From Escherichia coli (GTDB taxonomy: Bacteria; Pseudomonadota; Gammaproteobacteria; Enterobacterales; Enterobacteriaceae): 64,000 nt of DNA. Below the pieces are notes generated by a model. It saw only the letters and a program-made list of their open reading frames with translations, searched no databases and was not told where the DNA came from. The stretch lies in NCBI RefSeq assembly GCF_044647545.1, contig NZ_CP172818.1. One strand, written 5' to 3'. Below are positions 21,653-31,174 of the stretch, piece after piece; the stretch's first letter is position 1, and every line of letters begins with the position of its first letter. The position numbers and the translations under genes are program-made.

Positions 21653-22418
21653 CGGTTTATCCCCGCTGGCGCGGGGAATCGCCGGAAAATATTCATGATG
21701 GGGGTGGTTATGGCGGTTTATCCCCGCTGGCGCGGGGAATCTCGGGGCCGCCGTGTTCACATTTGCCTAATTTCCCGGTTTATCCCCGCTGGCGCGGGGA
21801 ACTCTATCATAAACGAGGTGAATTTATGGAAACTGTACGGTTTATCCCCGCTGGCGCGGGGAACTCGTTAGTTTTCGAAAAAATTGTTTTCTTACGCTGG
21901 TTTATCCCCGCTGGCGCGGGGAACTCAATTATTGTCGTGGACAAATGCCGGTGTTATTGCGGTTTATCCCCGCTGGCGCGGGGAACTCATTCGAGACAAT
22001 CTCTCAAAATTAATGAAATCGGTTTATCCCCGCTGGCGCGGGGAACTCCAGGTATCAAGAAATAATCGAAGCCTTCATGACGGTTTATCCCCGCTGGCGC
22101 GGGGAACTCAATTGATTGCTGGGTGATATTGGAAAATGTTGCGGTTTATCCCCGCTGGCGCGGGGAACTCCTACCGTACAGATCCTGACCGGATATTATT
22201 TTTTTGCGGTTTATCCCCGCTGGCGCGGGGAACTCCGACGTTCGACGAAATGCGCGATGGCGGTCGGCGGTTTATCCCCGCTGGCGCGGGGAACTCTTCT
22301 GCGTCCCCGATGTCTGGCCCGACTGGTCCGGTTTATCCCCGCTGGCGCGGGGAACTCTATATGACCGGAACACTTCCGCCTGACGTTTGCGGTTTATCCC
22401 CGCTGGCGCGGGGAACTC
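21653..22418 (-). CRISPR. CRISPR array, type I-E repeat (plus strand CGGTTTATCCCCGCTGGCGCGGGGAACTC), 13 repeats and 12 spacers; leader at the high-coordinate end
   Basis: Repeat starts at about 21653, 21714, 21776, 21838, 21898, 21960, 22020, 22081, 22142, 22207, 22268, 22329, 22390; the two leader-distal repeats end GAATCG/GAATCT. Confidence 0.97.
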
Positions 22419-22523
22419 TCTAAAAGTATACATTTGTTCTTAAAGCATTTTTTCCCATAAAAACAACCCACCAACCTTAATGTAACATTTCCTTATTATT
22501 AAAGATCAGCTAATTCTTTGTTT
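22419..22523 (-). promoter_or_regulatory. AT-rich CRISPR leader between the last repeat and cas2
   Basis: AT-rich non-coding segment adjoining the consensus repeat; leader role is from established knowledge of type I-E arrays. Confidence 0.7.
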
Positions 22524-22808
22524 TTAAACAGGTAAAAAAGAGACCAACCTTAAACCATCCAAATCTACCGGAGTACGCCTGTTTACCCCAAATGTCTGGA
22601 ACTCAAATCCCGATTCCGTATTCGTAGCCCATGCCATCACCACATTGCCTTCTTCCGCCAGTCCAGATATTTGTTCCCAGATCATTTCACGGATTCTTGC
22701 GGATACATCACCTACATACACCCCTGCACGTACCTCCAACAACCAGATGGCTAATCTGCCTCGTAAGCGCGGAGGTACATTTTCAGTGACCACGACCAAC
22801 ATACTCAT
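22524..22808 (-). CDS. cas2: CRISPR adaptation endoribonuclease Cas2
   Basis: Start taken at [17 protein letters not shown] (94 aa); the ORF track's 129-aa version is a 5' over-extension into cas1. Confidence 0.93.
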
Positions 22809-28093: not shown

Positions 28094-28507
28094 TTGTTCT
28101 CCTTCATATGCTCCGACATTTCTCCTGCATTTCTATACGTCGGCACACTTCCGTTATCGGTAAAAACAAAGAAAAAATACGGCGTAATTAATTCAATAAT
28201 CACATTCACTGCAAAAATATATTCATTGGTTTAATACAATTAACCTATGCATATATTAAGATGTGTTGAATTGTTTAAAGACAATAATGCATGCATTTCA
28301 AATCTGCAAGTTATTCGTTTTATTATCAAAGAAATTTTTAGTTATAATAATTACCATAAATTTTATTACATAAAATATTCATACTGTGAATATAAAATCT
28401 CATACCGGGAAATTAAAAGAAGATGTACATTGTGCACCTTCCCTACTTAAGTAGGGATAAACCGTTATTGGTCTTGTTATCGTCATTGATACCAATCATT
28501 CCCGAAG
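28094..28507 (-). promoter_or_regulatory. Strongly AT-rich cas3–casA intergenic region; site of the casABCDE12 promoter (Pcas), known in E. coli K-12 to be H-NS-silenced and LeuO-activated
   Basis: AT-rich 414-bp gap read directly; promoter role from established knowledge. Confidence 0.7.
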
Positions 28508-31174
28508 TTATTTGGGATTTGCAGGGATGACTCTGGTCATCCCTTCATCCCGAGTGTAGGTAATAACAATATTATTACCCTGCCAGATCCATCCATCCTG
28601 ATTCTGTTTCCCTTCCAGCCAAAGTACCCCATCTTCATCTACTACTTCAGAAAAATTACGTTTCCAGGTGAAGGGTACATTGACGCGATTAAGTGCTAAC
28701 GCCTCATACTGCTGTTCATGACTTAGGTCCTCGTAGACCTGGCCATCGAGCAGTTGTTTACCTGAAGACGTTTGTAAATAAGGCAATAATGGCAGGCTCA
28801 TTTCCCCATCCCTCGTTACCGCAAGAATTGTTTCATCGTTATCCTGCAAGCTATATTCTTCAGCCCACTGCAGAACCTTGCGAGCCTTGAACCTCTTTTC
28901 ACACTCAGCACTTTCATACTTATCCATGCCTTTGATGACCCATTCTGGCTCATCCATTTCAGCATCATCGTAAATGCTATCCAGCCATTGCCGGTAGGCA
29001 TCAGGGAAAAATAAGGATGCTCCATTAAGTTCCTCAATATGTTGCTGCGTCCGCCACATGACTCTAACGTTGCTATAAATATGCTCATGTCGTCCGTAAC
29101 CTTCGCCATCAGGCAGCAAAACGCTGGCAAGAGGAACCTCAAAACCAGCGGGACGATATTTGCGATGATGGCGATGTAAACGGCCCAATCGTTGGAAAAG
29201 TAAATCTGCGGGGCAATGCTGAGTAATTAACCAATCAAAATCAACGTCGAGTGATTGTTCCACGACCTGGGTGGCGACAAGTATCCGTCCAACATTTCGC
29301 TTCCCATTTTTGCCGAAATTGCTAATAACTCGATTCTCTTTTTCACGACGATCGTTCAGCGTAAAGCGCGCATGAAACAAATCTATATCTACTTGCGTGT
29401 TATTTAGTTCCTTTAACCGTTGGTGGCATAGTTGTGCAACATCAACCAAATTGCAGATAAGACAGACTTGTGCACCCGCATTTGCCGCTACGATCATTCG
29501 CTCTAACATCCTAAGGTCAGGTAACATGTCAGCTAAATAAATAGGTTCTGGCCGAATCGAAAAGCGGGGCGGGAGTTGTTCTGAATGAGCTAACAGATCA
29601 AAACGTTGTGCACCATTCACACCTCGCCAGTTAATGAGTGGATATGCGGAGTTATTTTCCTCTGGATCTGTATGCAGACCATAAGTATCCAGAAGTTTCT
29701 GTTTTTGTTTCATTGGTAGAGTTGCGGAAAGAAGAATAACACTCCCCCCCACATCAGCCTGAGCCTTGAGCACAGCCTCCAGCAAGCCGTTCATATACGT
29801 GTCGTAAGCATGAACTTCATCAACAATTAAAACACTTCGACCAATTCCCAAACCACGGATAAAGCGGTGTTTAACTGGCAATACCGATATCAACACCTGA
29901 TCAATCGTGCAAACGCCGATTTGCCCAAGAAACACTTTCTTATTGCTTTGTGACAACCACTGACAACACTGAACCCATGCTTCTTCTTGCCCCTGCTCAG
30001 TAAATGCGCGTGATTTTATTGATTGAAAAAGGTGGTTAAAACGTGAATTACCATGAGCAAGAATAAGATTTGGGGAGGTAAATAAACGGCTCGCGTTCGC
30101 TTCCATTCTGCTGAGCATTGCATTTGCAGTAGCTTGTGTAGGGAGGGCAAAAATAACACTATCCGCAAGTTGTTGGTCAATAAGTTTCCAGGCATAGGCC
30201 AGCGCTGTTTCGGTTTTACCTGATCCCGTAGGTGCCTCAATCACCGTCAGCCCGGGAGCTGCAGGAAGAGCATCAACTAACACTTGTAATTGTCTGGGTT
30301 GATAGCCATTGTCCAGTAGAGCATGAACACCTTCATAACATCGCTTATTTGATACAAGGCCGCTCAACTCCAATACCCGGCTCGCATCCTGCTGTCGGTC
30401 CTGGAAATACGTTCTTAGAGCATTTATGTTGGAAGGTGCATCCTCTTTAAACAGAAAGGTATTCGTTGTAGTCCAGGAGCCTAACCAGTCAGCAAGCGAG
30501 CAAAAACCTGCTAACAGTGATGAACAATCAGGTGGTATATCGTTTATAGATAACCCGGCTGGCGTTAAAAATAATGCTTCGAGTACAGATATCCACTCCT
30601 CACGAGCCTGTTTATCTTGCGCAGCATAAGATGCCAGAGAAGCTGGCATTTCCCAACGCGACTTATCTTGATCCTGGGAATGTAATATAAAACCATGATG
30701 TCCTGTAACGGCCTCTACCCATGGAAACCAGGACTCATAAGGATGAGGAGCGGCATCAAAAAAACTGAAAAAATCCCCGGGAGATTGCTCTGAAAGTGAA
30801 TCCTGGTTAAACCAATACAGACCGGCTGCACCATGATTAAATTTACGGCACATTTGTGTTGATGGACCATTAAGTGATGGCGTTGCAGGATTTAATTTCA
30901 GCCAACTTTCTGCTGATTTATATTGGAATCGTATATCAAACTTTCCGATATCATGAAGGGCAATGAAAAATAACAGCCAGGCTTTCACCATCTGTTTTGA
31001 TAGCATTTCATTTTGGCAAAAAGCATTTTGTAGTACGACTGATTGTTCCCACCAGCAATCTGCAACAGCTGCAACATCCAGGCAATGATAAATCAACAGA
31101 TGAATATCATTTCCTTTCGTCAGGCTTTTTGAGGATTTCCCCCAGTAATGACATATATATTTAAAAGGTTCCAT
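28508..31174 (-). CDS. cas3: CRISPR-associated nuclease/helicase Cas3 (HD nuclease + SF2 helicase)
   Basis: 888-aa ORF starting MEPFKYICHYWGKSS; helicase motifs APTGSGKTE and DEVH. Confidence 0.96.
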   Translation of the reverse strand: MEPFKYICHYWGKSSKSLTKGNDIHLLIYHCLDVAAVADCWWEQSVVLQNAFCQNEMLSKQMVKAWLLFFIALHDIGKFDIRFQYKSAESWLKLNPATPSLNGPSTQMCRKFNHGAAGLYWFNQDSLSEQSPGDFFSFFDAAPHPYESWFPWVEAVTGHHGFILHSQDQDKSRWEMPASLASYAAQDKQAREEWISVLEALFLTPAGLSINDIPPDCSSLLAGFCSLADWLGSWTTTNTFLFKEDAPSNINALRTYFQDRQQDASRVLELSGLVSNKRCYEGVHALLDNGYQPRQLQVLVDALPAAPGLTVIEAPTGSGKTETALAYAWKLIDQQLADSVIFALPTQATANAMLSRMEANASRLFTSPNLILAHGNSRFNHLFQSIKSRAFTEQGQEEAWVQCCQWLSQSNKKVFLGQIGVCTIDQVLISVLPVKHRFIRGLGIGRSVLIVDEVHAYDTYMNGLLEAVLKAQADVGGSVILLSATLPMKQKQKLLDTYGLHTDPEENNSAYPLINWRGVNGAQRFDLLAHSEQLPPRFSIRPEPIYLADMLPDLRMLERMIVAANAGAQVCLICNLVDVAQLCHQRLKELNNTQVDIDLFHARFTLNDRREKENRVISNFGKNGKRNVGRILVATQVVEQSLDVDFDWLITQHCPADLLFQRLGRLHRHHRKYRPAGFEVPLASVLLPDGEGYGRHEHIYSNVRVMWRTQQHIEELNGASLFFPDAYRQWLDSIYDDAEMDEPEWVIKGMDKYESAECEKRFKARKVLQWAEEYSLQDNDETILAVTRDGEMSLPLLPYLQTSSGKQLLDGQVYEDLSHEQQYEALALNRVNVPFTWKRNFSEVVDEDGVLWLEGKQNQDGWIWQGNNIVITYTRDEGMTRVIPANPK

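Follow-up and report, generated by a model that had tools for sequence, protein, structure and literature searches.

A known K-12-type type I-E CRISPR-Cas locus of Escherichia coli with intact cas genes and most likely chimeric array sequences

The region 21594-31174 of the 64,000-nucleotide stretch of E. coli DNA analyzed here (below, the window) is very probably the chromosomal type I-E CRISPR-Cas system of this species, in its K-12 (cas-E2) variant and at its usual site between iap and cysH, with arrays that, as written, are an unfaithful reconstruction and not natural copies. The system is already known, and biologically the locus adds nothing new. A preliminary description had also taken it for the known K-12-type system, which agrees with gene lengths equal to those of MG1655, nucleotide identities of 95.9-99.6% and an exact match to an E2-specific primer. 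The same description placed the interest of the locus in its completeness and its spacer content. Completeness is borne out, all eight cas genes being intact. The interest in spacer content does not survive, as five of the 12 spacers, two repeats and the whole of CRISPR II have a form that was found nowhere else and that resembles a blend with K-12.

Results

The locus lies on the minus strand and reads cas3, a 414-bp gap, casA-B-C-D-E, cas1, cas2, leader and CRISPR I array (Table 1), in the canonical order previously described. Its synteny, cysDNC-iap-array-cas-cysHIJ, is that of K-12, and at least 80% of the locus is present in 1,104 of 5,426 complete E. coli genomes (about a fifth). Gene starts were adjusted by comparison with K-12; at cas2, a 129-aa ORF with a TTG start was rejected as an upstream over-extension and the ATG start was adopted, as in K-12. 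The range initially reported, 21653-31174, holds the cas genes and CRISPR I, but it leaves outside CRISPR II, located 17 kb away at ygcE-queE, as well as the anchor spacer and the terminal repeat, with which the locus begins at 21594. Likewise, the array does have the 13 repeats and 12 spacers that were described, but it does not abut iap: the anchor spacer and a 14th, degenerate repeat intervene.

Table 1. Positions of the cas genes, arrays and associated elements in the window.
Feature	Position	Strand	Description
cas3	28508..31174	-	888 aa; HD nuclease and SF2 helicase; NF007248, 1600 bits (cut-off 569)
cas3-casA intergenic region	28094..28507	-	414 bp; Pcas promoter / H-NS-LeuO control region in K-12
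casA / cse1	26585..28093	-	502 aa; large Cascade subunit, PAM reading; NF007247, 902 bits (cut-off 576)
casB / cse2	26110..26592	-	160 aa; TIGR02548, 56.7 bits (cut-off 28.5)
casC / cas7e	25006..26097	-	363 aa; Cascade backbone; TIGR01869, 427 bits (cut-off 178)
casD / cas5e	24329..25003	-	224 aa; TIGR01868, 285 bits (cut-off 69)
casE / cas6e	23743..24342	-	199 aa; pre-crRNA endonuclease; TIGR01907, 268 bits (cut-off 45)
cas1e	22810..23727	-	305 aa; spacer integrase; TIGR03638, 378 bits (cut-off 216)
cas2e	22524..22808	-	94 aa; TIGR01873, 140 bits (cut-off 33)
CRISPR I leader (L2 type)	22419..22523	-	from sequence comparison with K-12
CRISPR I (CRISPR2.1) array	21653..22418	-	13 repeats of 29 nt and 12 spacers
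Anchor spacer	21622-21652	-	13th spacer; identical to K-12
Degenerate terminal (14th) repeat	21594-21621	-	resembles that of K-12; 22 nt from the iap stop codon
CRISPR II (CRISPR2.3) array, same system	47965..48367	-	7 repeats GTGTTCCCCGCGCCAGCGGGGATAAACCG and 6 spacers
CRISPR2.2 remnant	47375..47458	-	two degenerate repeats and one spacer

All eight Cas proteins scored above the curated NCBIfam cut-offs for type I-E families, a check that had been proposed in the preliminary description, and comparison of the eight ORFs with K-12 revealed no frameshift, no internal stop and no failed family match. The type I signature protein, Cas3, exceeds the cut-offs for both the HD domain (TIGR01596) and the helicase core (TIGR01587), and contains the HD and DEAH motifs. 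The subtype signature genes were found as well, casA exceeding the cut-offs of NF007247 and TIGR02547 and casB that of TIGR02548, as were the remaining Cascade subunits cas7e, cas5e and cas6e, in an operon whose order and overlaps match K-12, and the adaptation genes cas1e and cas2e, which exceed the cut-offs of TIGR03638 and TIGR01873. Cas3 possesses the catalytic residues H74, D75, K320 and D452-E453; H20 is present in Cas6e (casE), and E141, H208 and D221 are present in Cas1. At the nucleotide level, identity to K-12 is 95.9% for cas3 (853/888 aa), 98.1% for casA, 99.6% for casB, 99.4% for casC, 99.1% for casD, 99.5% for casE, 97.9% for cas1 and 96.1% for cas2. Because all eight genes are intact, the locus is, judging from its sequence, potentially functional.

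Almendros et al. 2014 (PMC3903273) defined the E2 (K-12) variant by cas3 primers, an L2 leader and the lack of a complete hok/sok module in the cas3-cysH interval. The E2-specific primer cas3E2-R matches the 5' part of cas3 exactly at 31097-31119, and the cysH-F primer matches 31468-31488, whereas the E1-specific primer cas3E1-R has no match in the window even when three mismatches are allowed. The leader is of the L2 type that is tied to E2 genes; it differs from the E2 reference, K-12, by two substitutions, both proximal to cas2, and the approximately 100 nt adjoining the first repeat are identical. An Rfam search of 19-34 kb at gathering thresholds gave a sole match, a full-length sok-family element at 31254-31410 between cas3 and cysH, and no Hok-like ORF was found between these two genes. 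Since K-12 has sokX annotated at the same site, this element appears to be a remnant common to the window and K-12. The cas block is indeed more AT-rich than its flanks, with a GC content of 44.5% versus 53.7% for cysDN(C) and 55.1% for cysHIJ. This low GC content, from which the preliminary description suggested horizontal acquisition, fits the account of the cas-E2 module as "less ameliorated" and horizontally exchanged (PMC3903273).

The AT-rich gap between cas3 and casA has exactly the reported length of 414 bp (30.0% GC), and it differs from K-12 by six substitutions and no indels (98.6% conserved). A sigma-70 consensus scan of this gap performed no better than on shuffled controls, and simple promoter and terminator consensus scans of the leader gave nothing beyond shuffled controls. 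Because these scans were uninformative relative to the shuffles, the promoter assignments are based on conservation with K-12, by which the gap would carry promoter function as it does there. H-NS silences both this AT-rich region and the leader in K-12, an effect that LeuO relieves. Given the 98.6% conservation of the control region, the same H-NS/LeuO control is likely to apply here.

If the system operates as described in the K-12 literature, the arrays would be transcribed from their leaders, and Cas6e would cleave at the hairpin base in every repeat, yielding 61-nt crRNAs held in a Cascade complex of Cse1, Cse2, Cas7e, Cas5e and Cas6e. This complex would locate PAM-flanked protospacers, generate an R-loop and then recruit Cas3, which would nick and unwind the target; Cas1-Cas2 would add new spacers at the leader-proximal repeat.

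A repeat search of CRISPR I identified 13 copies at a spacing of about 61 nt. The repeat, GAGTTCCCCGCGCCAGCGGGGATAAACCG, is identical to the 29-nt repeat of K-12 and forms a hairpin with a 7-bp stem. Next to the cas genes there is an array of 29-nt hairpin repeats with an AT-rich leader, having spacers of 31-36 nt in the window and 32-33 nt in its relatives. The spacing is uneven (60-65 nt) owing to small indels, seen in no relative, in five spacers and two repeats. Relative to strain WP4-S18-ESBL-09 (WP4), indels occur in spacers 4 and 7-10 and in repeats 12 and 13, while the leader-proximal spacers 1-3, 5 and 6 are unaltered. There are 13 differences in total, 12 of which are indels, all inside 21678-22188 (510 bp); they produce spacers of 31, 33 and 36 nt and two repeats with 1-nt indels, written in the window as GAGATTCCCC and CGATTCCCC. 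Together, the differences raise by 10 the number of matches to K-12 spacers of equal ordinal position, a gain reached in 81 of 20,000 permutations, although this statistic hinges on pairwise alignments of short sequences. The version of CRISPR I written in the window was present in none of the 5,426 complete E. coli genomes. The four best-matching genomes, which include WP4, and many further genomes listed contain a regular CRISPR I over the shared part, with 98.6-98.7% identity to the window. All eight metagenome contigs contain the regular 32-nt spacer 4, and the 36-nt form was seen in 0/8. When the spacers were compared with those of K-12 CRISPR I, as had been suggested earlier, the anchor proved to be shared and the other 12 to differ, indicating that the lineage acquired spacers in the past.

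CRISPR II has the same seven-repeat layout as K-12, with spacers of 31-38 nt. In order, its first five spacers show 66-91% identity to the first five of K-12, and spacer 6 is 83% identical to the terminal spacer of WP4; the background identity between unrelated spacers has a mean of 46% and a maximum of 60%. None of the 5,426 complete E. coli genomes exceeded about 90% identity over this array. The CRISPR2.2 remnant lies about 567-568 nt beyond CRISPR2.3 in K-12 and in WP4 alike. Apart from a few spots, both arrays among them, the window shows no differences from WP4 across about 52 kb. The other spots include positions 6050-10400, which are 100% identical to K-12 in a region absent from WP4; positions 4400-6050, which correspond to K-12 ygbI/ygbJ with both reading frames disrupted by about 42 indels; and positions ~96-390, homopolymer-rich noise where a gene should be and a sequence that K-12 does not contain.

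No convincing protospacers turned up when the whole CRISPR I array was compared by blastn (word size 11) with 50,697 records of phages and 72,556 of plasmids; the matches corresponded to other CRISPR arrays, misfiled chromosome fragments and chance-level spacer matches. The best spacer matches were those of spacer 2 to the Salmonella phages SI7, SW3 and SW5 (26/28, E = 0.2) and of spacer 3 to the terminase of the Vibrio P2-like phage K139 (28/32, E = 0.8). With such chance-level E-values (0.2-0.8), these phages were rejected as spacer targets.

Discussion

The versions of both arrays in the window are most likely a chimeric consensus artefact. The window sequence would be a reconstruction of a strain resembling WP4-S18-ESBL-09, contaminated or templated by K-12 MG1655 at places where the two strains differ structurally, and this would have given rise to the hybrid spacers, the odd spacer lengths and the two repeats with 1-nt indels. 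Ordinary random sequencing errors were rejected as an explanation, since the differences are confined to places that diverge structurally from K-12 and point toward K-12. A plain consensus on a K-12 template, on the other hand, fails to explain the garbled insertion at 96-390.

It could be argued that the irregularities are real biology, the older spacers and repeats of CRISPR I having accumulated small indels and CRISPR II having recombined with a K-12-like array. CRISPR loci of E. coli are documented to recombine and to exchange modules (PMC3903273), natural leader-distal repeats are degenerate (repeats 11-13 of K-12 carry substitutions), and the fact that the leader-proximal spacers 1-3, 5 and 6 of CRISPR I are untouched would fit. 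However, we regard this explanation, which would require a real strain missing from the collections searched, as highly improbable. It would have to accommodate 12 indels in 510 bp next to flanking DNA without a single difference in about 52 kb, changes that converge on the K-12 spacers at matching ordinal positions, and irregular arrays that are unmatched in the 5,426 genomes or the metagenome contigs. Moreover, array recombination exchanges whole spacers, and does not generate spacers of 66-91% identity beside perfect repeats; and the same window contains clearly non-biological tracts at 96-390 and 4400-6050. Even more improbable is that the hybrid and odd-length spacers are genuine products of remodelling, by small indels or by gene conversion with a K-12-like array, in which the repeats were kept perfect, or, in a weaker version, that the sequence records the mixing, in culture or by recombination, of a K-12 strain with a WP4-like (ESBL) strain. 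If true, genuine remodelling of this kind would be a way for arrays to evolve that has not been described before.

A different doubt concerns the locus as a whole, which might be a decaying, non-functional remnant, as in many E. coli lineages whose arrays persist although the cas genes are disrupted or gone. Type I-E systems of E. coli are largely silent under laboratory conditions, and the lack of a convincing spacer match in the phage and plasmid collections could be read in this way. Nevertheless, the eight ORFs are full length, retain their catalytic residues and occur with 100% identity in several isolates that were sequenced independently, and the spacer set is wholly unlike that of K-12 except for the anchor; decay is therefore very unlikely. 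It should be noted that, as the two arrays and no fewer than two further stretches are apparently chimeric, spacer typing or target prediction based on the arrays of this window would mislead, and that other findings from the window need checking against a clean relative, such as NZ_AP022098.1.

Comparison with known systems

The system of K-12 MG1655 (ygcB-casABCDE-ygbT-ygbF plus CRISPR I, b2754-b2761) occupies the same site and has the same gene order, gene lengths and start codons, an identical 29-nt repeat, the same 414-bp gap, a nearly identical leader and 13+1 repeats. It also has the same anchor spacer and a similar degenerate terminal repeat, a tandem that is conserved across E. coli (PMC3903273). 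On the other hand, all 12 non-anchor spacers differ, and the amino-acid substitutions (35 in cas3, 11 in casA, four in cas2 and 1-3 in casB-E) amount to a mosaic divergence. The genomic background is not that of K-12 either: identity to K-12 is 91-99% in the 1-kb bins on either side of the locus, the anomalous stretches excepted (ygbK-N is 100% K-12). The cas-E1 variant, found for example in O157:H7 and in most type I-E E. coli, shares the subtype, locus and repeat family, but has a distinct leader (L1) and a distinct intergenic element (IG4) (PMC3903273), and its cas3 primer site is absent from the window.

The closest relatives are strains WP4-S18-ESBL-09 (NZ_AP022098.1), 4973, EC11 and MS14385, which match the window at 100% in the cas genes, leader, gap and flanks, and which have the same 12 CRISPR I spacers in the same order. 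In these four strains, however, CRISPR I is regular, with perfect repeats and spacers of 32-33 nt, whereas the window has spacers and repeats bearing indels; and CRISPR II of WP4 consists of 21 repeats, in contrast to the seven-repeat hybrid of the window.

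Results

The cas genes and their flanks

The eight cas genes, the array and the intergenic gap of the complete type I-E locus that the preliminary description had placed at 21653-31174 were all present there, as seen in the ORF list and the repeat search. In a profile search, all eight Cas proteins scored above the curated NCBIfam cut-off for the expected type I-E family (e.g. Cas3, 1600 bits versus 569; Cse1, 902 versus 576; Cas1e, 378 versus 216). Comparison with E. coli K-12 MG1655 showed the same length and start codon for each of the eight genes and no internal stops, which leaves no sign of a frameshift. 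Moreover, the residues that we take to be catalytic in K-12 (Cas3 H74/D75/K320/D452, Cas1 E141/H208/D221 and Cas6e H20) are present throughout.

Features of the locus and of the second array in the window
Feature	Coordinates	Strand	Remarks
cas3	28508-31174	minus	ORF list
casA	26585-28093	minus	ORF list
casB	26110-26592	minus	ORF list
casC	25006-26097	minus	ORF list
casD	24329-25003	minus	ORF list; start fixed by K-12 comparison
casE	23743-24342	minus	ORF list
cas1	22810-23727	minus	ORF list
cas2	22524-22808	minus	ORF list; start fixed by K-12 comparison
Leader	22419-22523		between cas2 and CRISPR I
CRISPR I	21653-22418	minus	13 copies of one repeat (repeat search)
Conserved spacer	21622-21652		past the 13th repeat
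Degenerate repeat	21594-21621		iap stop codon 22 nt away
CRISPR II (CRISPR2.3)	47965-48367		seven repeats; outside the preliminary coordinates
CRISPR2.2 remnant	47375-47458		outside the preliminary coordinates
sok match (RF01794)	31254-31410	minus	cas3-cysH interval

Nucleotide divergence from K-12 forms a mosaic along the operon, with identities ranging from a minimum of 95.9% (cas3) through 98.1% (casA), 97.9% (cas1) and 96.1% (cas2) to 99.1-99.6% for casB-casE (maximum in casB), which suggests earlier recombination inside the cas-E2 module, the variant found in K-12. Outside the locus, divergence from K-12 peaks at the cysI/cysJ junction (34000-35000; 91 substitutions per kb, 90.7% identity, versus 96-98% in neighbouring bins), probably marking a recombination tract.

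The control regions are close to those of K-12: the leader differs at two positions, both proximal to cas2, and the cas3-casA gap at six, without indels. The gap was correctly described as AT-rich and 414 bp long (30.0% GC), and the cas block is likewise more AT-rich than the flanking cys operons (44.5% versus 53.7% and 55.1% GC).

The cas3-cysH interval contains a full-length Rfam match to sok (102.6 bits) at the position where sokX is annotated in K-12, and no Hok-like ORF was found near it. Since hok/sok has been reported to be missing in E2 strains (PMC3903273), this match is probably a remnant.

The CRISPR I array

The CRISPR I repeat, GAGTTCCCCGCGCCAGCGGGGATAAACCG, is that of K-12 and contains a 7-bp hairpin. 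The spacer past the last repeat, GGCGCACTGGATGCGATGATGGATATCACTT, is also identical in K-12 and, together with the degenerate repeat that follows it, makes up the anchor tandem whose conservation PMC3903273 describes. Apart from this anchor, none of the remaining 12 spacers is shared with K-12. Searches of phage and plasmid collections returned no convincing protospacers; weak matches, with E-values at chance level, linked spacer 2 (22297-22328) to Salmonella phages SI7/SW3/SW5 (26/28) and spacer 3 (22236-22267) to the terminase gene in K139 and other P2-like phages of Vibrio (28/32).

The closest genome to the window is that of E. coli WP4-S18-ESBL-09 (WP4), with an equal score in three others. 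Over 10466-62504 and 62460-64000, differences from WP4 are confined to the two arrays, except for a 37-bp gudD insertion at the alignment junction. The 13 differences in CRISPR I, 12 indels among them, lie entirely inside 21678-22188; they change spacers 4, 7, 8, 9 and 10 from a regular 32 nt to 36, 31, 33, 31 and 33 nt, respectively, and repeats 12 and 13 each gain or lose one base. A three-way alignment showed that the altered bases mostly match the K-12 spacer of equal ordinal position. Through these changes, matches to the K-12 spacers at the corresponding positions rise by 10, compared with a mean of 0.7 for random K-12 spacers from other positions; a rise of 10 was reached in only 81 of 20,000 permutations. 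CRISPR I as written occurs in none of the complete E. coli genomes (best match 98.7%), and the regular form of spacer 4 was found in eight metagenome contigs, the window's form in none.

CRISPR II and other anomalies

CRISPR II has spacers of 31-38 nt and the same number of repeats as in K-12, whereas WP4 has 21. Spacers 1-5 show 66-91% identity to K-12 spacers 1-5, in the same order, and spacer 6 shows 83% identity to the last WP4 spacer; unrelated spacers have a background identity of 46% on average and 60% at most. Spacers 1-2 and 4-5 are similar to WP4 sequence as well, namely to its spacers 1-2 and 18-19, respectively. This is the pattern expected of WP4-type sequence overlaid from both flanks on a K-12-shaped array. 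As written, CRISPR II is present in no complete E. coli genome (best match about 90%).

Similar irregularities lie elsewhere in the window. The region 6050-10400 (ygbK-N) is 100% identical to K-12 MG1655, compared with only 93-99% for neighbouring DNA; WP4 does not have it and instead encodes MarR and hydroxyarylic acid decarboxylase BCD there. At 4400-6050 the sequence is that of K-12 ygbI/ygbJ, with both reading frames disrupted by some 42 small indels. The interval 4370-10466 corresponds to the mutS-rpoS variable region. A homopolymer-rich, low-complexity tract at about 96-390 is a TOBE-domain gene in blurred form, one that WP4 has and K-12 lacks. It includes stretches of 9-14 A or 10 C, and of the eight homopolymers in the window that reach 8 nt or more, five fall within it. 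The tract does not look biological, and complete identity to WP4 resumes at about 386. At 62460-62504, the window, like K-12, lacks the 37-bp insertion that frameshifts WP4 gudD, which is annotated accordingly.

Discussion

Because the anomalies all fall at structural differences between a WP4-like genome and K-12, we infer that they stem from a chimeric reconstruction, for instance a template-guided or mixed-template consensus or another lossy rebuild. Judged from these alignments, both arrays appear unfaithful and partly artefactual, and the interest that the preliminary description saw in their spacer content therefore falls away. The cas genes, being 100% identical to those of WP4, are untouched by the chimerism.

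In the K-12 system, pre-crRNA is cut by Cas6e, crRNA-guided Cascade reads PAM-flanked targets and brings in Cas3 for target degradation, and Cas1-Cas2 places new spacers beside the leader. Its AT-rich promoter regions are silenced by H-NS, and LeuO lifts this silencing. By analogy, the locus in the window would follow the same working order. As its genes are intact and its control regions conserved, the best reading is that the system would be intact and normally silent.

Of the variant-specific cas3 primers in Almendros et al. 2014 (PMC3903273), the one for E2 matches exactly at 31097-31119 and the one for E1 has no match in the window; the locus thus belongs to the K-12 (cas-E2) variant. Among the 5,426 complete E. 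coli genomes in RefSeq, 1,104 contain at least 80% of the 10-kb region. According to the same study, E2 is the minor, less ameliorated variant gained through module exchange. The low GC content of the cas block agrees with this account and, to that extent, with the horizontal acquisition proposed earlier. The primer match and the 95.9-99.6% nucleotide identity bear out that this is a K-12-type locus, and a type I-E system at this site is already known.
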